DNA of 25,202 bases from Bacillota bacterium (GTDB lineage Bacteria; Bacillota; Clostridia; Lachnospirales; Anaerotignaceae), in assembly GCA_017547125.1 (NCBI GenBank), contig JAFYQL010000173.1, positions 1 through 25,202 of the forward strand, in the 5' to 3' direction. Positions within the stretch are counted from its first letter, which is position 1. Each line of letters begins with the position of its first letter. Shown here piece after piece: positions 1,364-21,340 of the stretch. The notes beneath the pieces were generated by a model. The model ran no database searches. It was given only the letters and a program-made list of their open reading frames with translations, and was not told the DNA's origin. Made by a program: the position numbers and the translations under genes.

Positions 1364-2059
1364 ATGGTAGAAAAATTTTCGCATGAACTGTTAGAAATGC
1401 TGACATGCGAAACCGTATTTACTGTTGGAAACATTGCTGTTTCTGAATCCACTGTTGTAACCTGGATTATTATGGCTATTATGGTGCTGATAGCTATTTT
1501 GGTTACAAGAGATCTCAAAGTGGAAAATCCAAGCAGACGACAGGTGATTGTTGAACAGGCTGTTGTTTCTTTACAGGGTATTGTAAGAAGCGGTCTTGGA
1601 AAATCAGGAGAAAGATACACATACTATATGGCAACTGTTCTTCTGTATCTTGGTCTTGCAAATACCATTGGTCTTTTTGGTATGAAACCACCTACAAAAG
1701 ACCTTAATGTAACAGTAGGCTTATCAATAATGAGTATCTGCTTAATCGAGTTTGCCGGTGTTCGTGCCAAAGGGCTTAAAAAATGGGCAAAGGGCTTTAT
1801 GGAACCGGTAGCCGTTGTAGCACCTATCAATGTTCTTGAAATTTTCATTAAACCGGTTTCATTATGTATGCGACTTTTTGGTAACATTCTTGGTGCTTTT
1901 ACCGTTATGGAAATGGTAAAAATAGTAATGCCGGCAGTTGTTCCGGTAGCATTTGGTCTTTATTTTGATATTTTCGATGGTTTGTTACAGGCGTACATTT
2001 TCGTATTCTTAACATCATTGTTTATCGGAGAAGCAACAGAAACAGAAGAGGAAGAATAA
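1364..2059 (+). CDS. atpB: F0F1 ATP synthase subunit a
   Basis: PPTKDLNVT, SLCMRLFGNI (conserved Arg) and LQAYIFVFLT motifs; AAGGAGG SD. Confidence 0.96.
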   Translation: MVEKFSHELLEMLTCETVFTVGNIAVSESTVVTWIIMAIMVLIAILVTRDLKVENPSRRQVIVEQAVVSLQGIVRSGLGKSGERYTYYMATVLLYLGLANTIGLFGMKPPTKDLNVTVGLSIMSICLIEFAGVRAKGLKKWAKGFMEPVAVVAPINVLEIFIKPVSLCMRLFGNILGAFTVMEMVKIVMPAVVPVAFGLYFDIFDGLLQAYIFVFLTSLFIGEATETEEEE

Positions 2060-2082: not shown

Positions 2083-2310
2083 ATGAGTAGTTATCTTTTA
2101 GGTTTTGGCGCGGCGATCGCAGTTTTCACAGGTATTGGTGCAGGTATTGGTATTGCTATGGCAACAAGCAAAGCAGTTGAATCAGTAGCAAGACAGCCTG
2201 AAGCAGATGGTAAAATCACAAAACTTTTACTTCTTGGTGCAGCTCTTGCAGAAGCAACAGCTATCTATGGTTTCGTTATCGCTGTATTAATTATCTTATT
2301 ATTAAAATAA
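2083..2310 (+). CDS. atpE: F0F1 ATP synthase subunit c
   Basis: GxGxGxG helix, ARQPEA loop, ALAEATAIY with the ion-binding Glu. Confidence 0.97.
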   Translation: MSSYLLGFGAAIAVFTGIGAGIGIAMATSKAVESVARQPEADGKITKLLLLGAALAEATAIYGFVIAVLIILLLK

Positions 2311-2322
2311 TCGGAGGTAAAT

Positions 2323-2808
2323 ATGCTTAGATTAGACATTAATCTGGTGTTTACCATTCTTAACGTTTTGATACTCTACTTCCTTATGAAGAAGTTTTTG
2401 TTCAAACCTGTTAATGGTGTTATCGCCAAAAGAGAAGAAGAAATTCAGAAAAAACTTTCAGAGGCAGAAGTGGCAAAACAGCAGGCTGCAAGAGTAAATG
2501 AAGAATGTGCAGCAGCGGTTGAAAGCGCAAAAGAAGAAGCTGAAGCCATTATTGCTGAAGCAAAAAATAAAGGCAGAATGGAATACGAACGTATTTTAAG
2601 CACTGCAAATGAAGATGCTGCAAAGAGAATGCAGAAGGCAGAAGAAATGATTGCTGAAGAAAAAGAAAAATCTTTACGCAATATGGAAAAAGAAATCGAA
2701 GCTCTTGTTATGACAGCGGCTGCAAAGGTTGTTGGCGAAAATGTTTCAGTTGAAAGCAACAAGAGTTTTTATGATGAATTTATTGCAGAAATGGGTGAAG
2801 ACAAGTGA
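2323..2808 (+). CDS. atpF: F0F1 ATP synthase subunit b
   Basis: N-terminal TM helix followed by FLFKPV and a long charged Ala/Glu/Lys helical region; GGAGG SD. Confidence 0.93.
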   Translation: MLRLDINLVFTILNVLILYFLMKKFLFKPVNGVIAKREEEIQKKLSEAEVAKQQAARVNEECAAAVESAKEEAEAIIAEAKNKGRMEYERILSTANEDAAKRMQKAEEMIAEEKEKSLRNMEKEIEALVMTAAAKVVGENVSVESNKSFYDEFIAEMGEDK

Positions 2809-4652
2809 TACAGTCAGCAAATGATAATGCAAAGGTAATGGAGCAGCTGTCAGTATCCGATTTACTCCCACAGTTAGAAGAAGCATTACGTGCAAAAAGT
2901 AAGCTTTCAGATTTAAAAGTGGAGATTATCTGCGTTGTTCCTCCTGATGAAGAACAGCTTGAAAAAATAAAAGCTTTTATAAAGAAAAAATATGAAACAG
3001 ACAATTTTGAAGTTGTTGTCAAGGAAGACAAGAGCCTTGTCGGCGGCTTTGTAATCCGTATTGGCAACGAAGAATATGACTGGAGTATGAAGGGCAGACT
3101 TCAGAAAATTCAGCAGAACATGGTTGACAGAGCCCAGACAAAAAATGCTGAAGAAACTGAAGGAATTATCTCAATACTTAAAACAGAAATTGAAGAATCT
3201 GTTTTTGATACAAGCAAAAAAGAAGTTGGTTTTGTTACATACGTTGGTGACGGTATTGCTACAATCCAGGGTATTGAACACGCAATGTACGGCGAAATCA
3301 TCATCTTTGATACAGGCGTAAGAGGCATGGTACAGGATATCAGAAGAAACGAAATTGGTGTTATCCTTTTTGGCCGTGACGCAGGCATCAAAGAAGGCAC
3401 AAGAGTTATCAGAACAGAAAAAATGGCAGGTGTGCCTGTAGGCGAAGAATTCCTTGGAAGAGTTGTTAATGCACTTGGTGACCCTATTGACGGCAAGGGT
3501 GCAGTTACAGCTTTTGGTTACAGACCTATCGAAAACAGAGCCCCTGGTATTATTGACAGAAAAGCAGTTACTGTTCCTATGGAAACAGGTATTATAGCCA
3601 TTGACTCAATGTTCCCTATCGGCCGAGGCCAGAGAGAACTTATCATTGGTAACCGTCAGACAGGTAAAACAAGTATCGCTATGGAAGCTATCTTAAACCA
3701 GAAGGGCAAAGGCGTAATCTGTGTTTATGTAGCTATTGGTCAGAAAGCATCAAGTGTTGCAAAACAGGTTCGTATGCTTGAAGAAAACGGCGCACTTGAC
3801 TACACAATTGTTGTATCTGCTCTTGCAAGTGATACTGCATCACTTCAGTACATTGCTCCTTATGCAGGTACATCAATGGCAGAATACTTTATGTATCAGG
3901 GCAAGGACGTTCTTATTGTTTATGACGACCTTTCAAAGCATGCGGTTGCATACAGGGCCCTTTCACTCTTGCTTGAACGTTCTCCGGGACGTGAAGCTTA
4001 TCCTGGTGACGTATTCTACCTTCACTCAAGACTTCTTGAAAGAAGTGCAAGACTTGCTCCTGAGGCGGGCGGAGGCTCAATCACAGCCCTTCCTATTATC
4101 GAAACTCAGGCAAGTGACGTATCAGCATATATCCCTACAAACGTAATTTCTATTACAGACGGTCAGATATATCTTGAAAGCTCATTGTTCTTTGCAGGCC
4201 AGAGACCTGCTGTAAACGTAGGTTTATCAGTATCACGAGTTGGTGGTAATGCACAGACAAAGGCAATGAAAAAAGCAGCCGGAAGTATCCGTATTGACCT
4301 TGCTCAGTACAGAGAAATGGAAATTTTCACACAGTTCAGTTCTGAACTTGATGATGCAACAAAAGAACAGTTGGTTTATGGCCAGGGCCTTATGGAATTA
4401 TTAAAACAGCCTTTGGCAAGACCACTTTCACTTGCTGAACAGGTAATTACACTTTGCGCAGCAAACAAGAAATTGTTCCTTGATGTTCCAAAGAACAAAA
4501 TCAAACCTTTCCAGATGTATATGCTGGAATATGTTAAAGAAAACTATAGCGAAATCATTCGTGAACTGCAGGAAGAAAAGGTTCTTACAGAAGACCTTAC
4601 AGAAAATATCATCAAAGCAGTTGAGGATGCAAAGAAATGTTATCTGAAATAA
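2805..4652 (+). CDS. atpA: F0F1 ATP synthase subunit alpha with N-terminally fused delta (OSCP) C-terminal domain
   Basis: aa ~37-104 match the delta CTD (EDKSLVGGFVIRIGNEEYDWSMKGRL). From aa ~117 it is alpha (VGDGIA, PIGRGQRELIIG, PGREAYPGDVFYLHSRLLER). GTG overlaps the atpF stop (GTGA); one uninterrupted 615 aa frame. Confidence 0.93.
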   Translation: MIQSANDNAKVMEQLSVSDLLPQLEEALRAKSKLSDLKVEIICVVPPDEEQLEKIKAFIKKKYETDNFEVVVKEDKSLVGGFVIRIGNEEYDWSMKGRLQKIQQNMVDRAQTKNAEETEGIISILKTEIEESVFDTSKKEVGFVTYVGDGIATIQGIEHAMYGEIIIFDTGVRGMVQDIRRNEIGVILFGRDAGIKEGTRVIRTEKMAGVPVGEEFLGRVVNALGDPIDGKGAVTAFGYRPIENRAPGIIDRKAVTVPMETGIIAIDSMFPIGRGQRELIIGNRQTGKTSIAMEAILNQKGKGVICVYVAIGQKASSVAKQVRMLEENGALDYTIVVSALASDTASLQYIAPYAGTSMAEYFMYQGKDVLIVYDDLSKHAVAYRALSLLLERSPGREAYPGDVFYLHSRLLERSARLAPEAGGGSITALPIIETQASDVSAYIPTNVISITDGQIYLESSLFFAGQRPAVNVGLSVSRVGGNAQTKAMKKAAGSIRIDLAQYREMEIFTQFSSELDDATKEQLVYGQGLMELLKQPLARPLSLAEQVITLCAANKKLFLDVPKNKIKPFQMYMLEYVKENYSEIIRELQEEKVLTEDLTENIIKAVEDAKKCYLK

Positions 4653-4675: not shown

Positions 4676-6944
<2,269 letters not shown>

Positions 6945-6950
6945 TGCCGT

Positions 6951-7364
6951 ATGAGTACGTTTGAACTGAGCGTAATTGCAACAAACCGCACTTTTTATAA
7001 GGGAATTTGCAGGCAGGTAGTGGTTTCTTCTACCGATGGTTTATTGGGTATTATGGCAAACCATGAACGTGCTGTTGTGGCTATTGTTGAAGGTGAAACT
7101 CGTATTCAGCTGGAAGATGGAGAATGGATTACTGCAGTTACAGGCATTGGATATGTGCAGATTCAGGACAACAAAGTGCTTATAATAGTGGACTTTGCAG
7201 AAAAACCTGAAGAAGTTGACGAAAGAATGGCACAGCAGGCTTTGGAAGAAGCGCAGGAAGAAATGCGACAGAAGCAAAGTCTTATGGAATTTCATATTTC
7301 ACAGGCCAAAATGGCACGAGCTATGGCTAGACTTTCAGTTAAGAAAAAGTATAGCGGTTTTTAA
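6951..7364 (+). CDS. atpC: F0F1 ATP synthase subunit epsilon
   Basis: GLLGIMANH beta-sandwich motif, C-terminal helical hairpin (ARAMARL), last gene of the operon. Confidence 0.95.
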   Translation: MSTFELSVIATNRTFYKGICRQVVVSSTDGLLGIMANHERAVVAIVEGETRIQLEDGEWITAVTGIGYVQIQDNKVLIIVDFAEKPEEVDERMAQQALEEAQEEMRQKQSLMEFHISQAKMARAMARLSVKKKYSGF

Positions 7365-8300: not shown

Positions 8301-8387
8301 TTACATAAAAAGTAAGTTATATACTAGCGAAAAGAAAATATGGTAATTTTGTAACTTTTCAACTGACTTTTTTGGATACTATGCGCA

Positions 8388-8416
8388 TTGAAGAAAAACG
8401 CACAATATACTATAAT
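8388..8416 (+). promoter_or_regulatory. Sigma-A promoter of PFOR-1
   Basis: TTGAAG (8388-8393)-N17-TATAAT (8411-8416). Confidence 0.8.
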
Positions 8417-8461
8417 ATTATTCTGGGTGAAATAGAAATAAACAATAAAGGAGAATGTAAT

Positions 8462-11400
8462 ATGTCTAAAATTATGAAAACAATGGACGGTAACGAAGCA
8501 GCTGCATACGCATCCTACGCGTTTACAGAAGTTGCTGGTATTTTCCCAATTACACCATCATCACCAATGGCTGAAAAGACAGATGATTGGGCCGCAAACG
8601 GCAAAAAGAACATCTTTGGACAGCCTGTAAAAGTTATTGAAATGCAGTCAGAAGCAGGTGCTGCAGGTACAGTACACGGCTCACTTGCATCAGGTGCACT
8701 CACAACTACATATACAGCAAGCCAGGGTCTTCTTCTTATGATCCCTAACATGTACAAAATCGCCGGAGAACTTCTTCCAAGCGTATTCCACGTAAGTGCC
8801 AGAGCACTTGCATCACACGCTCTTTCAATCTTCGGTGACCACAGTGACGTTATGGCTTGCCGTCAGACAGGTTTTGCACTTCTTGCATCAGCATCTGTTC
8901 AGGAAGTTATGGACCTTGGTGCAGTAGCACACTTAAGCACAATCAAAGGCAGAGTTCCTTTCCTTCATTTCTTCGATGGTTTCAGAACATCACACGAAAT
9001 TCAGAAAATCGAATGCCTTGACTTCGATGATCTTGCAAATATGGTAGATATGGATGCAGTTAACTCATTCAAGAGAAATGCGCTTAACCCAGAACACCCT
9101 GTTCTCAGAGGTTCAGCTCAGAACCCTGACATCTTCTTCCAGGCAAGAGAAAGCTGCAACAGATACTACGAAGATATCGTAGGTGTTTGCGAAGACTACA
9201 TGAAACAGATGAGCGCCCTCACAGGCAGAGACTATCAGCTTTTCAACTACTATGGTGCACCAGATGCTGAAAGAGTAGTTGTTGCTATGGGTTCAGTTTG
9301 TGAAGCTCTTGAAGAAACAATTGATTACCTTTGCGCTAAAGGTGAAAAAGTTGGTATGGTTAAAGTTCACCTTTACAGACCATTCTCAGCTAAACACCTT
9401 ATTAACGCAATTCCTGAAACATGCCAGAAGATTGCAGTTCTCGACAGAACAAAAGAACCTGGCGCACTTGGCGAACCACTTTACCAGGATGTATGTACAG
9501 CTATGTTTGAAGCTAAAGTACAGCCTATGGTAATCGGCGGCCGTTATGGTCTTGGTTCAAAAGACGTAACACCAGCACAGCTTATCGCTGTTTACGAAAA
9601 CCTTAAAGCAGACAAGCCTCTTAACCACTTCACAATCGGTATCGTTGACGACGTTACAAAGCTTTCACTCGAAGTTGGCAAAGAAGTTAATGTTACAGAA
9701 GGTGACGGCACAATCAGCTGCAAGTTCTGGGGTCTTGGCTCAGACGGTACAGTAGGTGCTAACAAAAACTCAATCAAAATCATCGGTGACCACACAGATA
9801 TGTATGCTCAGGCTTACTTCGCTTATGACTCAAAGAAATCAGGCGGTGTAACAATGAGTAACCTTCGTTTTGGTAAAAAACCAATCCGTTCAACATACGT
9901 TGTTAAAACAGCAAACTTTGTTGCTTGTCACAAACAGGAATATGTTAACCTTTATGACATGCATTCAGAACTTCTTCCAGGCGGTACATTCCTTCTTAAC
10001 ACAGAATGGACAGCAGAAGAACTTGATGCTAAACTTCCTGCAGCAATGAAGAAATACTTTGCAGAAAACGACATTAAGTTATACATCATCAACGGTACTC
10101 AGATTGCTAAAGAAATTGGTCTTGGCAACAGAGTTAACTCAGTACTTCAGGCTGCATTCTTCAAGCTTACAGGTATCATTCCTATTGAAGAAGCTGTTGG
10201 CTACATGAAGGCTGCTATCAAGAAGAGCTACGGCAAGAAGGGTGACACAATCCTTAACATGAACTATGCTGCTGTTGACCAGGGTGTTGACAAGGCTGTT
10301 CAGGTTGAAATTCCTGCTGCTTGGGCAAATGCTGAAGATACAGCAGTTGCTGAAGAAAGAGAAGTTCCTGAATTTGTTAAGGCAGTAGTTCAGCCTATGA
10401 ATGCTCAGAAGGGTGACTTACTTCCTGTTAGTGCATTTGCCGGCAGAGAAGATGGTACATTCCCAGCAGGTACAGCTGCTTACGAAAAGAGAGGCGTTGC
10501 TGTTGACCTTCCTGAATGGGATGTTACAAAGTGTATTCAGTGTAACCAGTGTGCATATGTATGTCCACACGCTGCTATCAGACCATTCCTTCTTACAGAA
10601 GAAGAAGTTGTAGCAGCTCCAGAAAGCTTTGCAACAAAGAAAGCAATCGGCAAAGGTCTTGAAGCATACCAGTACAGAATGCAGGTATCAGCTTTAGACT
10701 GTCTTGGTTGCGGCAGCTGTGCAGTAGTATGTCCATCAAAAGAAAAAGCACTTGTTATGAAACCAGCAGCTACACAGGAAAACGAAGCAGCTAACTGGGA
10801 TTATGCAATGACACTTTCAGTTAAAGAAAATGTTATGGCTAAAGACAGCGTTAAGGGCAGCCAGTTTGTACAGCCACTTCTTGAATTCTCAGGCGCATGT
10901 GCAGGCTGTGGCGAAACACCATACGCTAAACTTATCACTCAGCTTTTCGGTGACAGAATGTATGTTGCAAATGCTACAGGTTGTTCATCAATCTGGGGCG
11001 GCAGCGCACCTTCAACACCATATACAGTAAACCACAAGGGTCACGGTCCGGCTTGGGCTAACTCACTTTTCGAAGACAACGCAGAATACGGCTTTGGTAT
11101 GGCTATGGGCGTTAAGAAAATGAGAGAAGACCTTAAGGTTAGACTTGAAGAACTTAAAGAAATCCAGGGCTGCAGCATGATGGCTGAAACAGTTGACGCT
11201 TGGATTGACACAATGAAAGACGGTGAAGCTAATAAGTCTGCTACTGCTGACCTTATTACACTTCTTGAAAACTATAACGGCGAAAACGCAGAAGCAAAAG
11301 CAATCGTTGACTATGTTCTTGAAAACAAAGACCAGCTTGCTAAGAAGAGCCAGTGGATCTTTGGCGGTGACGGTTGGGCATATGACATCGGTTACGGCGG

Positions 11401-11995
11401 TCTTGACCACGTACTTGCTTCAGGCGAAGACGTAAACGTATTTGTATTTGACACAGAAGTTTACTCAAATACAGGCGGTCAGGCTTCTAAGGCTACACCA
11501 GCAGGTGCAGTTGCTCAGTTCGCAGCAAGCGGCAAGAGAATCAAGAAGAAAGACCTTGGTATGATGGCTATGAGTTATGGTTATGTATACGTAGCACAGG
11601 TTGCTATGGGCGCTAACCCAGCACAGCTTGTTAAGGCTCTTATCGAAGCTGAAAAATATGATGGTCCATCACTTGTTATCGCTTACGCTCCATGTATCAA
11701 CCACGGTATCAGAGGCGGTATGAGCGGTGCTCAGACAGAAATTAAGAGAGCTGTTGAAGCAGGTTACTGGCATATGTACAGATTCAACCCAGACCTCAAG
11801 AAGGAAGGTAAGAATCCATTTACACTTGACTCAACTCCAGAACCACAGGGCAACTTCCAGGAATTCATCAGAAGCGAAGTTCGTTATACATCACTTATGA
11901 GAACATTCCCAGAAATCGCTGAAGAACTCTTTGCTAAAGCAGAAGAAAATGCTAAAGACAGACTTGAAAGCTACAAGAAACTTGCAGCTCAGTAA
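8462..11995 (+). CDS. nifJ: Pyruvate:ferredoxin (flavodoxin) oxidoreductase, single-chain, housekeeping copy (PFOR-1)
   Basis: MDGNEAAA, PITPSS, two CxxCxxCxxxCP motifs, CAGCGE, GCSSIWGG, GDGWAYDIG, EVYSNTGGQ. True start is ATG 8462 with AAGGAG SD; the track start lies upstream of the promoter. Confidence 0.96.
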   Translation: MSKIMKTMDGNEAAAYASYAFTEVAGIFPITPSSPMAEKTDDWAANGKKNIFGQPVKVIEMQSEAGAAGTVHGSLASGALTTTYTASQGLLLMIPNMYKIAGELLPSVFHVSARALASHALSIFGDHSDVMACRQTGFALLASASVQEVMDLGAVAHLSTIKGRVPFLHFFDGFRTSHEIQKIECLDFDDLANMVDMDAVNSFKRNALNPEHPVLRGSAQNPDIFFQARESCNRYYEDIVGVCEDYMKQMSALTGRDYQLFNYYGAPDAERVVVAMGSVCEALEETIDYLCAKGEKVGMVKVHLYRPFSAKHLINAIPETCQKIAVLDRTKEPGALGEPLYQDVCTAMFEAKVQPMVIGGRYGLGSKDVTPAQLIAVYENLKADKPLNHFTIGIVDDVTKLSLEVGKEVNVTEGDGTISCKFWGLGSDGTVGANKNSIKIIGDHTDMYAQAYFAYDSKKSGGVTMSNLRFGKKPIRSTYVVKTANFVACHKQEYVNLYDMHSELLPGGTFLLNTEWTAEELDAKLPAAMKKYFAENDIKLYIINGTQIAKEIGLGNRVNSVLQAAFFKLTGIIPIEEAVGYMKAAIKKSYGKKGDTILNMNYAAVDQGVDKAVQVEIPAAWANAEDTAVAEEREVPEFVKAVVQPMNAQKGDLLPVSAFAGREDGTFPAGTAAYEKRGVAVDLPEWDVTKCIQCNQCAYVCPHAAIRPFLLTEEEVVAAPESFATKKAIGKGLEAYQYRMQVSALDCLGCGSCAVVCPSKEKALVMKPAATQENEAANWDYAMTLSVKENVMAKDSVKGSQFVQPLLEFSGACAGCGETPYAKLITQLFGDRMYVANATGCSSIWGGSAPSTPYTVNHKGHGPAWANSLFEDNAEYGFGMAMGVKKMREDLKVRLEELKEIQGCSMMAETVDAWIDTMKDGEANKSATADLITLLENYNGENAEAKAIVDYVLENKDQLAKKSQWIFGGDGWAYDIGYGGLDHVLASGEDVNVFVFDTEVYSNTGGQASKATPAGAVAQFAASGKRIKKKDLGMMAMSYGYVYVAQVAMGANPAQLVKALIEAEKYDGPSLVIAYAPCINHGIRGGMSGAQTEIKRAVEAGYWHMYRFNPDLKKEGKNPFTLDSTPEPQGNFQEFIRSEVRYTSLMRTFPEIAEELFAKAEENAKDRLESYKKLAAQ

Positions 11996-13850: not shown

Positions 13851-16800
13851 TTATAATTCTTCCATATGTTTATATTTTTCGTATCTTGTGCCTGAGTCTT
13901 CTTTTGCAGCCTTGAAAAGAGTTTCTGCATATTCAGGGAAAGTACGTTTTAATGCAGAGTATCTTGTTTCGCCGTCAAGGAATTCTTCGTAGTCCATAGT
14001 TGGCTTTTTGCTATCCACTGTAAGTGGTTTTTCTGCATTAGGGTTGTAGCGGTAAAGTGTCCAGTAGCCTGAATCGACTGCACGTTTCATTTCGTTCTGT
14101 ACGTTGCTCATGCCAGCTTTGATGCCGTGTGTTACACAAGGTGTGTATGCAACGATAACAGATGGGCCTTTGTGCTGTTCAGCCTCGTGAAGAGCCTTGA
14201 TAAGCTGATTTGGGTCTGCACCCATAGCAACCTGTGCCACATATACATTTCCGTATGTCTGGAAAATGGCGCCAAGCTCTTTCTTACGGCTTCTCTTGCC
14301 GGCTGAAGCAAACTGTGCTACTGCGCCGAGAGGAGTTGCCTTTGAGCTCTGTCCGCCTGTATTTGAGTAAACTTCAGTATCTACAACAAATACGTTGATG
14401 TCTTCGCCGGATGCAACTACGTGGTCAAGACCGCCAAAGCCGATGTCATATGCCCAGCCGTCGCCGCCGAACATCCAGAAGCATTTTTTGGCAAGCTGAT
14501 CTTTTCTTTCAAGTATCTTTTTTGCAAGAGGAGAAGCTACTGCTTCAAGCTCAGCAATAAGTTCATCTGTTGCCTGACGTGAAGCATCAAAGTTGTCAAA
14601 TGCATCAAGCCAGAGTTTAGCAGCTTCACTGCCGGTTTCAGCCATATATTCTTCTACAAGGGCTTTCTGTGCAAGTCTCTGCTGTTTTACTGAAAGGAAC
14701 ATACCAAGTTCAAGCTCGGCATTGTTTTCGAAAAGTGAGTTTGTCCATGCAGGGCCAAAGCCACGTTTGTTTGTTGTGTAAGGAATGCCAGGCATTGGTG
14801 AGCCCCAGGCCTGTGAACAACCTGTTGCGTTTGCCCAGTAAACTCTGTCGCCAAAAAGCTGAGTAAGAAGCTTGGCATATGGTGTTTCGCCGCAGCCTGC
14901 ACAAGCAGCACTGAACTCAATAAGAGGCTGGCGGAACTGGCTGCCTTTGATGCTATATACATTGAAAAGGTCGCCTTTGTCAGAAATTGTGAGACCATAG
15001 TTCCAAAGCTTCTTGCTTTCTTCTGTAAGGTTGGCATCTTCCATAGTGATTGCATTTTCCTTTGCAGGGCAGCAAGCTACACAGCTGCCGCAACCTGTAC
15101 AGTCAAAGCTTGAAATCTGCATTGTAAAGTGAAGTCCTTTGGCTGCAGCACCCATAGCAGGAACTGTTTCAAAGCCTTCAGGAGCATTTGCTTTTTCTTC
15201 GTCGTTTAAGAGATATGGACGGATAACTGCGTGCGGACAAACGAGAGCACACTTGTTGCACTGGATACATTTTGAAGCATCCCATACAGGAACTTTGAGT
15301 GCGATACCACGTTTTTCAAATGCAGTAAGACCCATATCAATACGTCCGTCTTCATAGTTTTTGAATGCACTTACAGGAAGGTCATCGCCTTTCTGTCTGT
15401 TGATAGGCTGAAGAAGGTTTTTAACAACGTCAGGAAGATTGTTGTCAGCAGCAGCTTCACCGCTTTCAGCCTGTGCCCATGAAGAAGGAACATTAACCTT
15501 AACAAGCTCTGTAGCGCCTGCATCAATTGCCGCAACGTTTCTTGCAATAACGTCATCGCCTTTTGCGAAGTATGTTTTGCGGGTAGCATCTTTAATCATT
15601 CCAAGAGCGTCTTCAGTAGGAATAACCTGCATGAGAGCAAAGAATGATGCCTGAAGTACTGTGTTTGTGTGACTGCCAAGGCCTAAATCCTGAGCAATCT
15701 TGTTTGCATCTATCATGTAGAACTGAATGTTCTTTTCTGCAATCTGTTTTCTTACCTTCGCAGGAATATGGTCTTCAAGTTCGCTTTCTTTCCAGCTGCA
15801 GTTAAGAAGGAATGTTCCGCCTTCAACTATTTCGTCAATGATATCATACTGTGTTATGTAACTCTGGTTGTGGCATGCAACAAAGTCAGCCTGTTTTACA
15901 TAGTATGAGCTTGTGATTGGCTTGTCGCTGAAACGAAGGTGTGATTTTGTAACACCAAATGATTTTTTGGCATCATATTCAAAATAAGCCTGAGCAAATT
16001 TGTCTGTGTTGTCGTTGATGATACGAACTGTGTTGTGGTTTGCACCAACAGTGCCGTCACCGCCAAGACCCCAGAATTTGCATCTTACAAGGCCGTTTGT
16101 ATTTTCTGTATAAGGCTTTAATGGTAATGAAAGATGAGTAACGTCATCGTTGATACCGATAGTAAAGCTTCGGATTGGGTTTGGAGAAGCAAGGTTTTCA
16201 AATACAGCCGCAATCTGTGATGGGTCTGTATCCTTTGAACTTAAACCGTAGCGTCCGCCGATAACCTTGATCTGACGGTCGTTATTCATAAGTACAGAGC
16301 AGATATCTTCAAATAATGGTTCGCCTGCGCTGCCCATAGCCTTGCATCTGTCAAGAACGGCAATTCTTTCAACAGTTTCAGGAAGAGCCTGAAGGAAATG
16401 CTTTGCAGAGAAAGGTCTGTATAAGTGTACCTGAAGGAAGCCAACCTTTTTGCCTTCGTTAACAAGTTTTTCTGTAACATCACAGATAACACCGCTGGCT
16501 GAACCCATAGCGATAACCACATCAGTTGCATCAGGTGCACCATAGTAGTTGAATGTATGGTATTCACGGCCTGTGATTTTTGAAATTTCTCCAAGATATT
16601 TTTCAACGATATCAGGAAGGTTGTTGTAGAATGTGTTGTTTGCTTCTCTAACCTGGAAGTACACGTCACCGTTCTGAACAGTGTTACGAAGTGTAGGGTG
16701 TTCAGGGTTGAGTGAGCCGTCACGGAATGCTTTTAAAGCATCTTTGTCGATGAGGCTGCCAACTTTATCAAGGTCAGGAAGCTCAATTTTGTTGATTTCG

Positions 16801-17333
16801 TGGCTTGTTCTAAAACCATCAAAGAAGTGCATGAAAGGAATGCGTCCTTCGATAGCACTTAAGTGAGCAACAGGAGCAAGGTCTGCAACTTCCTGTACGC
16901 TGCCTGATGAAATCATAGCAAAGCCTGTCTGACGGCATGCCATAACGTCACTGTGGTCGCCGAAAATACTCATAGCGTGTGTACCAACTGTACGTGATGC
17001 CACATGAAGAACAGCAGGAAGTCTTTCCCCTGCAATTCTGTAAAGCACAGGGACCATAAGCATAAGTCCCTGTGAAGATGTATAAGATGTTGCAAGTGAG
17101 CCAGCCTGAAGAGCACCGTGCACTGCTGTGATAGCGCCTGCTTCAGACTGCATTTCTGTTAATGTTACTGTCTGGCCGAATACATTTGTTCTGCCTTTGG
17201 CTGACCATGCGTCTGTAAGGCCTGCCATAGGAGATGATGGTGTGATTGGGTAAATAGCAGCTACTTCTGTAAATGGATATGCCATATATGCAGCAGCTTC
17301 GTTACCGTCCATTGTTACATATTTTTTGGACAT
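13851..17333 (-). CDS. nifJ: Second single-chain 2-oxoacid:ferredoxin oxidoreductase (NifJ/PFOR family, PFOR-2), substrate possibly not pyruvate
   Basis: All cofactor motifs present (YPITPSS, CIQCNKC..CP, CTGCGSC..CP, CAGCGE, GDGWAYDIG, EVYSNTGGQ). ATG 17333 is 6 nt after GAGGTG. Confidence 0.93.
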   Translation of the reverse strand: MSKKYVTMDGNEAAAYMAYPFTEVAAIYPITPSSPMAGLTDAWSAKGRTNVFGQTVTLTEMQSEAGAITAVHGALQAGSLATSYTSSQGLMLMVPVLYRIAGERLPAVLHVASRTVGTHAMSIFGDHSDVMACRQTGFAMISSGSVQEVADLAPVAHLSAIEGRIPFMHFFDGFRTSHEINKIELPDLDKVGSLIDKDALKAFRDGSLNPEHPTLRNTVQNGDVYFQVREANNTFYNNLPDIVEKYLGEISKITGREYHTFNYYGAPDATDVVIAMGSASGVICDVTEKLVNEGKKVGFLQVHLYRPFSAKHFLQALPETVERIAVLDRCKAMGSAGEPLFEDICSVLMNNDRQIKVIGGRYGLSSKDTDPSQIAAVFENLASPNPIRSFTIGINDDVTHLSLPLKPYTENTNGLVRCKFWGLGGDGTVGANHNTVRIINDNTDKFAQAYFEYDAKKSFGVTKSHLRFSDKPITSSYYVKQADFVACHNQSYITQYDIIDEIVEGGTFLLNCSWKESELEDHIPAKVRKQIAEKNIQFYMIDANKIAQDLGLGSHTNTVLQASFFALMQVIPTEDALGMIKDATRKTYFAKGDDVIARNVAAIDAGATELVKVNVPSSWAQAESGEAAADNNLPDVVKNLLQPINRQKGDDLPVSAFKNYEDGRIDMGLTAFEKRGIALKVPVWDASKCIQCNKCALVCPHAVIRPYLLNDEEKANAPEGFETVPAMGAAAKGLHFTMQISSFDCTGCGSCVACCPAKENAITMEDANLTEESKKLWNYGLTISDKGDLFNVYSIKGSQFRQPLIEFSAACAGCGETPYAKLLTQLFGDRVYWANATGCSQAWGSPMPGIPYTTNKRGFGPAWTNSLFENNAELELGMFLSVKQQRLAQKALVEEYMAETGSEAAKLWLDAFDNFDASRQATDELIAELEAVASPLAKKILERKDQLAKKCFWMFGGDGWAYDIGFGGLDHVVASGEDINVFVVDTEVYSNTGGQSSKATPLGAVAQFASAGKRSRKKELGAIFQTYGNVYVAQVAMGADPNQLIKALHEAEQHKGPSVIVAYTPCVTHGIKAGMSNVQNEMKRAVDSGYWTLYRYNPNAEKPLTVDSKKPTMDYEEFLDGETRYSALKRTFPEYAETLFKAAKEDSGTRYEKYKHMEEL

Positions 17334-17350
17334 GTTTGTCACCTCGTTAA

Positions 17351-19867
17351 TTAGTTGTTGCTTTTTGCTGTGTCAATACCTGCAGCGCCGACTAAACCAA
17401 GCTTGTTGGCATATTCTTCGCGCATCTTATATTTTAACACTTTTCCAGCTGCATTCATAGGGAATGAGTCGACAAAGTCAATGTATTTAGGAACTTTATG
17501 TCTTGCCATGCTTGCGGCGATGTAGTCGTGCATTTCTTCAACTGTCATGCTGCAGCCTTCCTTAAGGATAACGCAGGCCATAGCTTCTTCGCCGTAGCGC
17601 TTGTCAGGAACACCGATAACCTGTACGTCACGTACTGATGGGTGTGTATAGATAAATTCTTCAATTTCTTTTGGATAAATGTTTTCGCCGCCGCGGATAA
17701 TCATATCTTTAAGACGACCTGTGATACGGAATGTACCGTCAGCTTCTCTGCAGGCAAGGTCGCCTGAGTGGAGCCATCCGTCTGCGTCGATAGTGTCACG
17801 GGTTGCTTCAGGCATCTTGTAGTAGCCTTTCATAATGTTGTAACCGCGTGAGCAGAATTCGCCGTTTACGCCGTCAGGAACAACTTCGCCTGTTTCTGGG
17901 TCAATAACCTTACATTCAACGTGTGGGAAGTTATAGCCAACAGTGTTTGTACGAAGATCAAGAGGATCTTCCCAAGCTGACATTGTGCTGCCCGGAGATG
18001 ATTCTGTTTGGCCGTAAACACTTACGATACCTGTCATATTCATTTCGTTAGGGTCTGCAGCACGTCTCATAAGGTCAGGAGGACAGCCGGCGCCGGCCAT
18101 AATACCTGTACGCATGTATGAGAAGTTAGTCTTTCTGTAGTCTTCGTGGTTGAACATAGCTATGAACATAGTAGGCACACCGTTGAAGCAAGTGATTCTT
18201 TCCTGATTGATGCAGGCAAGTGATGATTTTGCTGAGAAGTATGGAAGCGGACAAACTGTTGCACCGTGTGTGAGAGATGCAGTCATTGAAAGTACCATAC
18301 CGAAGCAGTGGAACATAGGAACCTGAATCATCATACGGTCTGCAGTTGAAAGTCCCATTCTGTCACCGATACATTTACCGTTGTTAACTACGTTGTAGTG
18401 TGTAAGCATAACGCCTTTAGGGAAACCTGTTGTACCTGATGTGTACTGCATATTACAAACATCGTCAGGTCTTACCTTTGCTGCCATTCTGTTAAGTTCT
18501 TCAGGGGCAACAAGGTCTGCTCTTTCCATAGCTTCTTCAAATGTGAGGCAGCCAGGCTGCTTGAAGCCAACTGTAATTACATTACGAAGGAATGGAAGGC
18601 GTTTGCAGTGAAGAGGCTTGCCAGGTTTGCTTGTGGCAATTTCAGGACAAAGCTCATTGATAATCTGTTTGTAGTTTGAGTCAAGACAAGACTCAATCAT
18701 AATAAGTGTATGAGTATCTGACTGGCGGAAAAGGTAGTCAGCTTCGTGAATCTTGTATGCTGTGTTTACAGTAACAAGTACGGCACCGATTTTTGTTGTT
18801 GCCCAGAAAGCAATATACCATGCAGGTACGTTTGTTGCCCAAACTGATACCTTATTGCCTGCTTTTACGCCAAGAGAGATAAGTGCTCTTGCAAAGTTAT
18901 CAACGTCTTCACGGAATTCTTCGTATGTACGTACATAGTCAAGTGTTGTGTACTTGAATGCATACTGGTCAGGGAATTCTTCAACCATACGGTCAAGAAC
19001 CTGTGAGAATGTGAGGTTGATAAGTTCGTCTTTTTTCCAAACATACTGGCCTGTGCCGTCGTGGTTAGGATAAAGAACTTTCTTTTTGCCGCGTGTCTTT
19101 TCGAAACGGCTCATATAGTTTACAAAGTGAGGGAAAATAACTTCGTATTCAGGAAGGTCTTCCATCCACTCAATTTTCCATTCAAGAGAAATATAACCGT
19201 CATAGTCGATTGATGAAAGCGCTCTCATCATATCATCGATAGGAAGAGTACCTTCGCCTATAAGGTTGTATGTGTCTTTGTCGTCTGAGTCACGGAAATG
19301 AACGTGTTTTACATAAGCACCAAGGTTTTTGATAGTTGCATCTGCGCTTTCGTTAAAGTCGCGATATGGGTGGTGAATATCCCATAATGCAGCAAGCTGG
19401 TCGCATGCAAAGCTGTCCATAAGTGAACGGAGACGTGATGTGTCAGCATAAATACCGCTTGTTTTTACAAGAATTGTTACGTCTGCATCTTCTGCATCGT
19501 CAAGAAGCTCAGCTATTCTTTCGCGAACGAGGTCTTCGTTTTCGTGAAGAGCAACAACTGTAACGTATGGAACCTGCATCTGTTTTGCAGTCTGAATAAG
19601 TTCTTTGATGGCAGGAACAAAGTTTTCTTCGTTTGAAGAAAGGTCACAGGATGTATCGAAACAAGGAATAGCAAGTTTCTTTTCTCTGAGCTGACGAGAT
19701 GTTGATGCCATATTATATTTGTGGAAAGGGCCACTGCGTTCTGTTAATTCAGGGAATTTTGGAAGGTTATAAACTTCTATGCCGGCAAAATCCATTGTTT
19801 CGCCAATTTCAAGATATTCATCCCAGTTTAAATGAGCCCAGCCTCTGGTTGAAAATGAAAGTTTCAT
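17351..19867 (-). CDS. AMP-forming acyl-CoA synthetase with N-terminal xylose-isomerase-like TIM-barrel domain
   Basis: C-terminal ~560 aa: YTSGTTGFPKG, PMFHCFG, YGQTE, GWLHSGDL, RLKDMIIRGGENIYP, AGKVLK. N-terminal ~255 aa: FAGIEV, WDIHH, KHVHFRD, GEGTLP, YDGYISLEW. Confidence 0.9.
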   Translation of the reverse strand: MKLSFSTRGWAHLNWDEYLEIGETMDFAGIEVYNLPKFPELTERSGPFHKYNMASTSRQLREKKLAIPCFDTSCDLSSNEENFVPAIKELIQTAKQMQVPYVTVVALHENEDLVRERIAELLDDAEDADVTILVKTSGIYADTSRLRSLMDSFACDQLAALWDIHHPYRDFNESADATIKNLGAYVKHVHFRDSDDKDTYNLIGEGTLPIDDMMRALSSIDYDGYISLEWKIEWMEDLPEYEVIFPHFVNYMSRFEKTRGKKKVLYPNHDGTGQYVWKKDELINLTFSQVLDRMVEEFPDQYAFKYTTLDYVRTYEEFREDVDNFARALISLGVKAGNKVSVWATNVPAWYIAFWATTKIGAVLVTVNTAYKIHEADYLFRQSDTHTLIMIESCLDSNYKQIINELCPEIATSKPGKPLHCKRLPFLRNVITVGFKQPGCLTFEEAMERADLVAPEELNRMAAKVRPDDVCNMQYTSGTTGFPKGVMLTHYNVVNNGKCIGDRMGLSTADRMMIQVPMFHCFGMVLSMTASLTHGATVCPLPYFSAKSSLACINQERITCFNGVPTMFIAMFNHEDYRKTNFSYMRTGIMAGAGCPPDLMRRAADPNEMNMTGIVSVYGQTESSPGSTMSAWEDPLDLRTNTVGYNFPHVECKVIDPETGEVVPDGVNGEFCSRGYNIMKGYYKMPEATRDTIDADGWLHSGDLACREADGTFRITGRLKDMIIRGGENIYPKEIEEFIYTHPSVRDVQVIGVPDKRYGEEAMACVILKEGCSMTVEEMHDYIAASMARHKVPKYIDFVDSFPMNAAGKVLKYKMREEYANKLGLVGAAGIDTAKSNN

Positions 19868-21279
19868 TATACCTCAGCCTCCTCGTAAGTAATCTTATTA
19901 AGTGCGTTGATGTAAGCCTGAATACTTGAGCCTACGATGTCAGTTGATGTACCACGGCCTGAGTAAAGTTTGCCATTGGAACGAAGTTTAACTACAGTTT
20001 CGCCCATAGCTTCGCGGCCTTCTGTTACGGAACGAATCTGGAAATCATCAAGTTCATAATGGCAGCCAAGAATGTTTTCGATAGCAAGGAATGCTGAGTC
20101 GATAGGACCGTCGCCAAGTGCAACGCCTTCAAGCATCTGACCATGTTTTTCAAGCTTCATATGAGCCATTGATGATGATGTGTTGCTTGCTGTGATGTTG
20201 TAGCTGTGAAGAACGTATGTTGAAGGAACCTGCATAGCTGCTGAAGCAACGATTGTATCAAGTTCTCTTGTTGTGATAACGTCTTTTCTTGCGGCGATTT
20301 TCTGGAATGCATCCCAAACCTGTGCGCCGTCTTCTTCGCTTAAGTCATAGCCAAGTTTTTCAACTGATTTAAGTACAGTTGACATATTGTCGTGGCTTGT
20401 AAGTGACATATCTTCTGTAATTTCCTGAACACCATTGTCGAATGGTGAGTTTTTGCTTCTTCTTGTTTCGCACATCCATGAAATCTGTTTGATGATGCGG
20501 TTCATTTCAACTGTGCGTACGCTGCAGTTAACTCCGAATGAGTCGCCTTTTGCAGCAAGAAGACGTGAAACGTGAGGAAGTGATACAGTGTTTATTTGAT
20601 ATGCAGCAGCTTTAATTTCTTTTACGCCGTGTTTGATAGCAGCAACTGCACAGGCATCAGCCATAGCAAGTTCGTTTGAACATGAAAGGCCAAGCACTGC
20701 ATCTTTAAGCTCATCAACATTTGCATAAAGTTCATCAATAAATTCGCCAAGTTCGTCAGGAAGCATAGCACCTGTTGCATCGCATACAGTTACTGTTTTT
20801 GCACCTGCATTGATAGCTGATTTGATAACTTGATATAAAAATGCCTTGTCGCTTCTTGTTGCGTCATCTGCAATAAATTCTACGTCGCTTGTTTTTGCGC
20901 AGCAGGCAGCAATTGTATTTTCAATAGCCTTAAGCATAGCTTCAGGCTTTTTGTTGAAAAGGTATTCCATCTGAACTGGGCTTACAGAAGCACGTACCTG
21001 AAGACGAGGATGTTTAGCCTCTTTAAGTGCATTCCAAGTGATGTCGATGCTTTCTTCAGCAAGCTGAACAGGTACTGCTACGATACTGTTTTTTACTGTT
21101 GAAGCAACTGATTTTATACGTAAAGAATCAATCTTAGGCTGTGTGATAGGTTCAAGCTCAATTACAGAAACGTTTAGTTTATCAAGCAGTTTAGGTATTT
21201 CAATCTTTTCTTTGAAAGAAAGAGTAAATTCTTTTCCGGTCTGTTTCATTGTAATGTCACTGATTCTGATCTGGTCCAT
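19867..21279 (-). CDS. LeuA (2-isopropylmalate synthase)-like protein, predicted catalytically inactive, with intact C-terminal regulatory domain
   Basis: LeuA-like EFIADDATRSD and VCDATGAMLP; regulatory domain GDGPIDSA, EGREAMGE, STDIVGSS. The RDGEQ, HxH and GERxGN motifs are absent. ATG 21279 after AAGAGGTG; the track start lies inside the T-box terminator. Confidence 0.85.
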   Translation of the reverse strand: MDQIRISDITMKQTGKEFTLSFKEKIEIPKLLDKLNVSVIELEPITQPKIDSLRIKSVASTVKNSIVAVPVQLAEESIDITWNALKEAKHPRLQVRASVSPVQMEYLFNKKPEAMLKAIENTIAACCAKTSDVEFIADDATRSDKAFLYQVIKSAINAGAKTVTVCDATGAMLPDELGEFIDELYANVDELKDAVLGLSCSNELAMADACAVAAIKHGVKEIKAAAYQINTVSLPHVSRLLAAKGDSFGVNCSVRTVEMNRIIKQISWMCETRRSKNSPFDNGVQEITEDMSLTSHDNMSTVLKSVEKLGYDLSEEDGAQVWDAFQKIAARKDVITTRELDTIVASAAMQVPSTYVLHSYNITASNTSSSMAHMKLEKHGQMLEGVALGDGPIDSAFLAIENILGCHYELDDFQIRSVTEGREAMGETVVKLRSNGKLYSGRGTSTDIVGSSIQAYINALNKITYEEAEV

Positions 21280-21307
21280 TTTGTTACACCTCTTTTTTCT
21301 GAATAAA

Positions 21308-21340
21308 TAAAAAAATCCTTGAAGCATTATGCCTCAAGGA
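21308..21340 (-). terminator. T-box attenuator terminator
   Basis: TCCTTGAGGCA-taa-TGCTTCAAGGA-TTTTTTT, mutually exclusive with the antiterminator. Confidence 0.92.

Follow-up and report, generated by a model that had tools for sequence, protein, structure and literature searches.

The F-type ATP synthase operon analyzed here carries, between the genes for subunits b and gamma, a single open reading frame that joins the C-terminal domain (CTD) of subunit delta to a complete alpha subunit. No other delta gene was found in the genomes that we searched. It is probable, in our assessment, that the frame is a real one-chain gene and supplies the enzyme's only delta, that the three alphas each bring a b-binding CTD to the complex, and that a peptide bond replaces the grip otherwise exerted by the delta N-terminal domain (NTD). 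Comparison with related fused genes shows that the NTD was removed by an in-frame deletion from a full-length fusion of the same family.

The fused gene and its operon

The window, by which we mean the whole stretch of DNA that was analyzed, comprises 25,202 nt of contig JAFYQL010000173.1 (GCA_017547125.1), read on the forward strand. The host is a gut-type Clostridia bacterium of a Lachnospiraceae-type lineage, and its genome also encodes Rnf. ORF calls together with Pfam matches give the gene order atpB-E-F-fusion-G-D-C in the window, with the following features:

1364..2059, + strand: atpB, Fo subunit a, 231 aa (Pfam ATP-synt_A, E 1.1e-41)
2083..2310, + strand: atpE, Fo subunit c, 75 aa (Pfam ATP-synt_C)
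2323..2808, + strand: atpF, b subunit, single, 161 aa (Pfam ATP-synt_B, E 1.8e-19)
2805..4652, + strand: delta(deltaN)-alpha fused gene, 615 aa, GTG start (Pfam, TIGRFAM, predicted SD)
4676..5563, + strand: atpG, gamma (Pfam ATP-synt, E 7e-93)
5517..6944, + strand: atpD, beta (Pfam)
6951..7364, + strand: atpC, epsilon (Pfam ATP-synt_DE_N, ATP-synt_DE)

The TTG start of atpD as listed overlaps atpG, and the true start probably lies further downstream. The GTG start of the fusion overlaps the stop codon of atpF (GTGA, with the atpF TGA at 2806-2808), has a predicted SD pairing of -7.4 kcal/mol, and is homologous in alignments to the start of full-length fused relatives. The frame at 2805-4652 contains neither a stop nor a frameshift inside delta-alpha. 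The original prediction that one 615-aa delta-alpha ORF, and no separate atpH, stands between atpF and atpG is confirmed by the Pfam and TIGRFAM matches and by this open frame. A mycobacterial-type b-delta fusion was rejected, as atpF has its own TGA and its product is an ordinary 161-aa b subunit. The C-terminal LYDxF motif of this b subunit is kept in 35 relatives. In an alignment of the c subunit with 1YCE, 3ZK1 and 4BEM, Ile and Ala replace Q32 and S66 of the Na+-binding c subunit of I. tartaricus (1YCE), and the c subunit of the window is probably H+-coupled.

The 615-aa protein is composed as follows:

2805..2912, + strand: remnant of the delta NTD, aa 1-36, as indicated by protein and DNA alignments and AF2
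2913..3122, + strand: delta (OSCP) CTD, aa 37-106 (Pfam OSCP, AF2)
3123..3155, + strand: linker, aa 107-117, 11 residues (phmmer alignment to 9JC1_I)
3156..4652, + strand: complete F1 alpha, aa 118-615 (TIGR00962, Pfam)

Pfam OSCP (PF00213) aligns aa 32-106 with model positions 98-172 of 172 (E 6.4e-15; 56.1 bits, cut-off 22.3), while model positions 1-97 have no match in the 615-aa protein, that is, the N-terminal helical bundle is missing. With the delta model TIGR01145 the protein reaches 50.5 bits, short of the 57.5 cut-off. For alpha, TIGR00962 (atpA) covers aa 118-613 with model positions 4-501 at 729.6 bits (cut-off 484.45); the alpha part also matches Pfam ATP-synt_ab_N, ATP-synt_ab and ATP-synt_ab_C, and it keeps its own N-terminal helix (IISILKTEIEE...). 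Assignment to the N-ATPase alpha family (TIGR03324) was rejected, as the score of 592.7 bits does not reach the cut-off (750.5). AF2 predicts a beta/alpha fold for the delta CTD with pLDDT 87-90, and two helices, 2-14 and 17-36, for the remnant with pLDDT about 70. Of the earlier proposal that delta is reduced to its CTD, the CTD itself is borne out (aa 37-106); the reduction is not a clean one, a two-helix remnant of the NTD having survived.

A separate atpH elsewhere in the genome, a possibility that the original prediction had raised, was not found. No second OSCP match was found in the source MAG, which at 68% completeness may still be missing one, nor in three near-complete genomes with short fusions (G002, G009 and G011, 92-99% complete).

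Trimming of the delta N-terminal domain

The nearest relative of the fused gene, P0004 (L100), encodes a 675-aa full-length delta-alpha fusion with an alpha part 90.5% identical to that of the window, and the window protein corresponds to P0004 minus 60 codons within the NTD. The remnant at aa 1-36 retains the start of helix 1, with a net 60 codons absent, and the breakpoints of the loss are ambiguous within about 2859-2912 in a DNA alignment with L100 and L020. By this comparison the 36-aa "leader" is a relic of the delta NTD after an internal in-frame deletion. The leader of about 36 aa that had been predicted is thus correct in extent (aa 1-36), and what fails is its reading as a neutral leader. 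The deletion is evolutionarily recent, since the NTD is still complete in a relative whose alpha is 90.5% identical. With alpha following in the same frame, a deletion can survive only if it keeps that frame, and therefore the open frame says little about whether the remnant is functional.

Hundreds of related fused delta-alpha genes were found in independent assemblies, several of them with other in-frame trims, and the suspicion that similar fusions exist in related Clostridia proved right. They occur widely in Lachnospiraceae and Oscillospiraceae, where the majority are full-length; one cluster of short fusions carries the label Christensenellaceae. Among cultured carriers, Firmicutes bacterium AM41-11 (L046) has the short form, whereas Muricoprocola aceti and Caproiciproducens galactitolivorans have the full-length one. 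In the alpha tree, trimmed forms sit within a mostly full-length fused clade, and no fewer than 7 changes are required to explain the trimmed state, with well-supported branches forcing at least 5 of them. On this tree the NTD has been trimmed at least 5-7 separate times. In a class-wide OSCP census, the best 150 matches listed are all separate full-length deltas, and about 33 of the 212 genomes with a match gave only weak matches. Our literature search found no paper on delta-alpha fusions of Lachnospiraceae. The delta-alpha fusion as such is not new, its architecture having already been published for other species, and it is common, not rare, in the bacterial group of the host.

Proposed mechanism and rival explanations

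In ordinary enzymes, the N-terminal helical bundle of delta is located on the F1 crown, gripping the alpha N-termini, and the delta CTD binds b. With the fused chain intact, as we infer, each of the three alphas would carry a delta CTD at its N-terminus, behind the 36-residue relic of the helical bundle. The peptide bond to alpha would take over the crown grip from the bundle, which would be dispensable once fused to alpha and could be deleted. Docking of the b2 dimer onto the fused CTD would follow the pattern of ordinary enzymes. F1 would then present three equivalent docking sites, not one, with at least one of them occupied, giving one to three stalks, each with its own a-subunit.

Binding of b by the fused delta is hinted at by a complex prediction. 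When aa 1-215 were modelled together with b 85-161 in two copies, the prediction score was 0.50, in a range (0.60 or below) that holds 7 of 80 solved complexes and both of the mismatched pairs that pass; the best of three controls scored 0.01. The pass mark is reached by 58 of the 80 solved complexes and by 2 of 110 mismatched pairs. Contact agreement of the runs was at least 98%, with a partner pLDDT of at least 71. Since delta-b complexes have already been solved, the pass may be a memory of known structures.

An assembly or binning artefact, with the deletion or the fused frame absent from the real genome, might be suspected from the fragmentation of the source MAG (218 contigs, 68% complete), but we consider it very improbable: a separate 5403-bp ENA contig of another assembly encodes, in the same operon, a 615-aa protein that is identical bar one substitution, and fused genes, including several with other trims, recur across the independent assemblies described above. 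There is also little reason to favor a single delta-bearing alpha per F1, with free alpha arising by internal initiation or cleavage, a 1:3 ratio of delta to alpha and a single stalk. Among 70 fused relatives, 15 do have an in-frame start near the junction with an SD of -6 kcal/mol or stronger; however, 17 lack any in-frame start in that region, and the ancestral alpha Met at the junction is not conserved across the fusions. In the window, in-frame starts near the junction are limited to M95 and M106, and both lack an SD (predicted pairing of -1.8 and -0.8 kcal/mol, compared with -6 to -11.6 kcal/mol for most real starts in the operon), which makes internal initiation in the window appear unlikely. 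Repeated loss of the NTD would moreover be hard to explain if a lone delta must still grip the crown.

The F-type operon could alternatively be decaying or accessory, its NTD deletion being a recent lesion that is neutral or slightly harmful and is tolerated by virtue of a V/A-type ATPase. The genome encodes a V/A-ATPase subunit I, and because a V/A-type ATPase is present, the F-type enzyme of the window is not necessarily the main ATP synthase. A recent deletion would agree with decay, as would the fast divergence of the remnant (it shares 7/36 residues with L020/P0005, while alpha is 87% identical) and an alpha P-loop that reads GNRQTGKT instead of GDRQTGKT. However, all of the atp genes in the window (8/8) are intact and have SD sites, alpha is 87-90% identical to that of relatives, and the delta CTD aligns with theirs without gaps at 69-73% identity (73% with P0004). 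Other trimmed lineages persist across several species and three genera, and an engineered equivalent is fully active (PMC12229609). This alternative, whether as decay or as an accessory role, is on balance improbable.

We prefer an intact one-chain fusion with three b-binding CTDs. Whether such an enzyme goes further, building two or three b2 stalks with their own a-subunits and raising the number of ions moved per ATP two- to threefold over a one-stalk enzyme, with NTD trimming as an adaptation that clears the crown for use of all three sites, is a more speculative matter, and we are inclined to doubt it. If it were true, ATP synthesis would be open to a fermenter that builds only a small gradient, even when its membrane potential is very low.

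Comparison with known systems

In rotary ATP synthases, c-ring size alone is commonly taken to set how many ions are spent per ATP. Engineering of the PS3 enzyme in 2025 demonstrated that this ratio can also change with how many stalks and a-subunits the enzyme has, and that the delta NTD is what restricts the enzyme to one stalk (PMC12229609). Gut and rumen Clostridia commonly carry natural genes of the engineered design, which have repeatedly been trimmed from full-length fusions; this suggests that evolution may have explored the same design. If it has, this bears on the energy conservation of fermenters that live near the thermodynamic limit. The operons of the window and P0004 form a natural pair, differing mainly by the 60-codon deletion, and are suited to a direct test.

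Among solved structures, the engineered Bacillus PS3 deltaDeltaN-alpha enzyme (PDB 9JC1; Ueno et al., Nat Commun 2025, PMC12229609) comes closest. It ranks first in the PDB by sequence (9JC1_I, E 3.9e-25, a single phmmer alignment spanning the junction) as well as by fold (chains K, I and J of 9JC1). The PS3 construct, delta(105-178)-GSGG-alpha, is functional and binds b2 canonically; it assembled 1-3 stalks, each with an a-subunit, and uses 5.9 H+ per ATP instead of 3.1 (PMC12229609). As in 9JC1, the fused gene of the window joins a delta CTD to a complete alpha by a short linker, here 2 residues longer than the GSGG junction. The engineered enzyme has no free delta, and none was found in the genomes searched here. 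Unlike 9JC1, the gene of the window is natural, carries a 36-aa NTD relic and shares about 30% identity with the construct. Two mechanistic proposals of the original prediction agree with the engineered enzyme: that a covalent link would replace the missing NTD grip, and that alpha3 would carry three delta CTDs and hence offer up to three docking sites or leave two domains idle, in line with the 1-3 stalks of the PS3 fusion.

With one uninterrupted frame and a missing delta NTD, the window gene matches the natural deltaDeltaN-alpha class of PMC12229609 in gene architecture. Natural members were noted there in Acidaminococcus fermentans and in UniProt entries G4Q3K6 and A0A1I2C5T3, as multi-stalk candidates (PMC12229609). 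The Acidaminococcus-type fusions have the same gene architecture, with atpH absent from the operon, a likeness drawn from their published description. The window differs in belonging to Lachnospiraceae-type Clostridia and in having a trimmed form whose origin from a full-length fusion, by an internal deletion, can be followed. Such full-length fusions, found for example in P0004/L100, Roseburia, Agathobacter, Butyrivibrio, Lachnospira, Muricoprocola aceti and Caproiciproducens galactitolivorans, share with the window the gene family, the operon order and a start that overlaps the atpF stop, but they keep a six-helix NTD (OSCP model 9-172) from which the window lacks 60 codons.

Two further systems are instructive. 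In another natural F-type enzyme, a reduced delta NTD accompanies more than one stalk; there, however, delta is free, with a dimerising four-helix NTD, and is not fused to alpha. The mycobacterial b-delta fusion is likewise a covalent delta fusion in the peripheral stalk, with delta present once per enzyme (PMC8617483; PMC5709465), and PMC5709465 reports b-delta fusions only. In the window, by contrast, b is encoded by a separate 161-aa gene and delta is carried on alpha, which predicts three copies of delta per enzyme.

The fused gene and its surroundings

The F-type atp operon is complete within the window, and Pfam searches identify its genes as follows:

1364-2059, +, atpB
2083-2310, +, atpE
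2323-2808, +, atpF, a separate b gene
2805-4652, +, fused delta-alpha ORF (Pfam OSCP and alpha domains, TIGR00962)
4676-5563, +, atpG
to 6944 (longest frame from 5517), +, atpD
6951-7364, +, atpC

The original prediction of an operon without atpH, in which one uninterrupted 615-aa ORF joins the delta C-terminal domain (CTD) to alpha, is borne out. No separate atpH is present in the operon, and ORF 2805-4652 encodes 615 residues free of stops. The Pfam OSCP (delta) match at aa 32-106 covers only model positions 98-172 of 172 (E 6.4e-15) and is followed by three Pfam alpha domains, with the NCBIfam atpA model TIGR00962 aligning aa 118-613 to positions 4-501 (729.6 bits, cut-off 484). The delta equivalog TIGR01145 scores 50.5 bits, under its 57.5 cut-off, which is what half a delta should give. 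The ORF starts with a GTG at 2805 that overlaps the stop of atpF (GTGA), and its predicted Shine-Dalgarno (SD) pairing, -7.4 kcal/mol, lies within the span of values for the remaining atp starts. The same protein, apart from a single Q-to-K change, is encoded on a second contig (5403 bp, ENA assembly ERZ27297789), in the same a/c/b/fusion/gamma arrangement and with the same 4-nt overlap; on the strength of this separate assembly, we take the fused frame and its deletion as real.

The longest atpD frame begins at a TTG, overlapping atpG by 47 nt (5517-5563), with weak SD pairing (-4.3 kcal/mol) and a beta N-domain match from residue 19 on, so a start codon 3' of this TTG is probably the genuine one. 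At the positions of Q32 and S66 in the Na+-binding c of I. tartaricus, the window's c-subunit carries Ile and Ala; measured against the known Na+ motif, this tentatively suggests H+ coupling. Elsewhere in the window's MAG, G000:C94:871-2199 and G000:C208:4336-5513 between them encode a V/A-type ATPase subunit I in a 662-aa frame and two subunits of the Rnf-Nqr family (RnfA/E-like); given the former, the F-type enzyme is not necessarily this genome's sole rotary enzyme. The window also holds a pair of pyruvate:ferredoxin oxidoreductase paralogues, both full-length, that are encoded on opposite strands within 6 kb (8372-11995, +; 13851-17342, -). An 838-aa ORF (17351-19867, -) follows immediately after an HMGL-like/LeuA_dimer gene (19867-21327) and has the unusual combination of a xylose-isomerase-like TIM barrel (AP_endonuc_2, aa 24-233) and an AMP-binding enzyme (aa 292-809).

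Origin of the trimmed fusion

The ~36-aa leader described in the original prediction does precede the delta CTD, but it is not a mere leader. In the alignment of relatives, the first residues of the fusion (..A-N-D-N-A-K-V-M-E-Q-L-S-V-S) match the helix 1 start of full-length delta. The same start is found in P0004, the closest relative found (alpha part 90.5% identical), a 675-aa fused protein with an OSCP match over model positions 9-172. The DNA of the two is collinear through the atpF end, the overlapping start and ~20 codons, past which the window lacks a net 60 codons of P0004, and alignment resumes shortly 5' of the first CTD strand. Judged from these alignments, the leader is thus a relic, the part of the N-terminal bundle that remained after an internal, frame-preserving deletion. 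The exact breakpoints of the deletion are ambiguous, and it may consist of one large and one small gap. In an AlphaFold2 model built with 36 homologues, the relic forms two helices (aa 2-14 and 17-36, pLDDT ~70), and the confidently folded CTD (pLDDT 87-90) is followed by a floppy linker and then the alpha N-terminal helix and beta-barrel. The relic diverges fast: 7 of its 36 residues are identical to P0005 (the 603-aa protein of locus L020), whereas the CTD has 48 of 70 identical and alpha 87%. Its open frame is not in itself evidence of a role, since alpha lies downstream in the same frame and only in-frame deletions survive.

Similar fusions do exist in related Clostridia, as had been supposed. 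With aa 1-135 as query, a word-indexed search yielded 66 fused proteins, the majority 669-679 aa long, the few named ones being from Lachnospiraceae, Coprococcus or Lachnospira. Junction relatives are encoded in 307 stretches of one-genome-per-species contigs, the best 80 coming from Roseburia, Agathobacter, Butyrivibrio, Coprococcus, Lachnospira, Muricoprocola aceti, Caproiciproducens galactitolivorans, Angelakisella and many MAGs. The best 150 matches of an exhaustive HMMER search (aa 1-215, 1.84 billion representatives) include 71 short fusions, 9 full-length fusions that keep the N-terminal domain (NTD) and 5 intermediates, with many fragments among these.

An alpha-only tree of 86 rows (79 of the 80 best loci, six from a genome search, and the window) comprises 55 full-length fusions, 13 trimmed, 7 partly trimmed (Oscillospiraceae), 10 separate-gene rows (Mediterraneibacter and others) and one longer form. 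The separate-gene lineages fall outside a single large group formed by the fused genes. The trimmed state takes at least seven changes, at least five of them forced by well-supported branches; breakpoints differ among trims, and most keep the first few codons. This pattern points to fusion first, followed by repeated NTD loss. Within the window's tight clade (support 100), the window groups with full-length P0004 (support 86) and P0005 has a different, larger deletion, which argues that the window's trim arose recently and probably independently of its neighbour's. Elsewhere on the tree, trimmed lineages persist across several species and three genera.

Several relatives depart from the common forms. 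A 782-aa fused protein of an uncultured Ruminococcaceae (L098:1736-4081, CAJKJS010000056.1), ~100 residues longer than full-length fusions, has two OSCP stretches before alpha, and part of delta may be duplicated. A CTD-only OSCP match (model 97-172) in a 229-aa open frame (G059:C1:633401-633625) marks a trimmed delta, seemingly unfused to alpha. At L004:1207-3231 (G032), placed among the fused genes on the tree, delta and alpha are separate in the same frame with a single TAA between them, which may represent fission or a retained pre-fusion state. Three contigs labelled Bacteroidaceae or Bacteroides (L025, L043, L071) carry Lachnospiraceae/Oscillospiraceae-type fused operons nearly identical to Clostridia ones and are probably mis-binned or mislabelled. 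The alpha P-loop (~3651-3674; fusion aa 283-290) reads GNRQTGKT in the window, P0004 and P0005, with Asn for the usual Asp of GDRQTGKT, which other fused relatives keep.

Delta supply and stalk number

Another atpH in the genome, which the original prediction had proposed to look for, was not found in the window's 68%-complete MAG, where the fusion is the sole OSCP match; nor was a second OSCP gene in three relatives' genomes with short fusions (G002, G009 and G011; 92-99% complete). Free alpha could be made by an internal start within the fused ORF, and 15 of 70 fused relatives have a junction start with a decent SD. However, the only in-frame starts between aa 85 and 135 of the fusion, M95 and M106, pair at -1.8 and -0.8 kcal/mol, compared with -6 to -11.6 kcal/mol for most real starts of the operon, leaving this explanation unsupported here. 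Moreover, in 17 of the 70 the junction lacks any in-frame start codon, and the aligned fused relatives do not conserve the ancestral alpha Met, which argues that internal initiation is not a general feature of fusions.

The delta NTD sits on the F1 crown and binds the alpha N-termini, while the CTD binds b2 (PMC12229609). After removing residues 2-104 from Bacillus PS3 delta, Ueno et al. joined 105-178 via GSGG to alpha; the enzyme was active, bound b2 canonically and had between one and three stalks, with an a-subunit on every stalk and an H+/ATP of 5.9 versus 3.1 (PMC12229609). Its structure, 9JC1, is the best PDB match to fusion aa 1-215 (sequence E 3.9e-25, single alignment across the junction, natural linker two residues longer), and 9JC1 chains are the top three Foldseek matches. 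Carriers of full and of trimmed forms alike conserve the C-terminus of b (LYDxF...G-E/D). When aa 1-215 were modelled in complex with two copies of b 85-161, the score was 0.50 (best of three controls 0.01). Of 80 solved complexes 58 attain the pass mark, as do 2 of 110 mismatches, and scores of 0.60 or less come from only 7 of those 80 plus both passing mismatches. At least 98% of contacts are shared between the runs, with partner pLDDT of at least 71. This weakly supports a predicted contact between the fused CTD and b2, and the score may be memory of known structures, as delta-b complexes are already solved.

Taken together, we consider it likely that the fused chain would remain intact and serve as the only delta of the enzyme, that the covalent delta-alpha link would anchor the stator, and that three equivalent b2 sites would be left on F1. 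That two or three stalks are assembled in vivo seems rather improbable to us.

Relation to known enzymes

The mycobacterial enzyme, in which delta is fused to b, differs from the window, where b is a separate gene, and an N-ATPase is ruled out by a TIGR03324 score below cut-off. The natural F-type enzyme of Chloroflexus aurantiacus, with two stalks and a reduced delta N-domain (PMC12002316), shows that the two features can occur together. The delta-alpha architecture itself is already known: the engineered PS3 enzyme shares it with the window's fusion, and the same study noted it in nature in Acidaminococcus fermentans and two UniProt entries (PMC12229609). New here are the internal deletion that leaves a relic of the delta NTD, the second assembly with the same junction, and the full-length relative, so close in alpha that it forms a natural test pair with the window.
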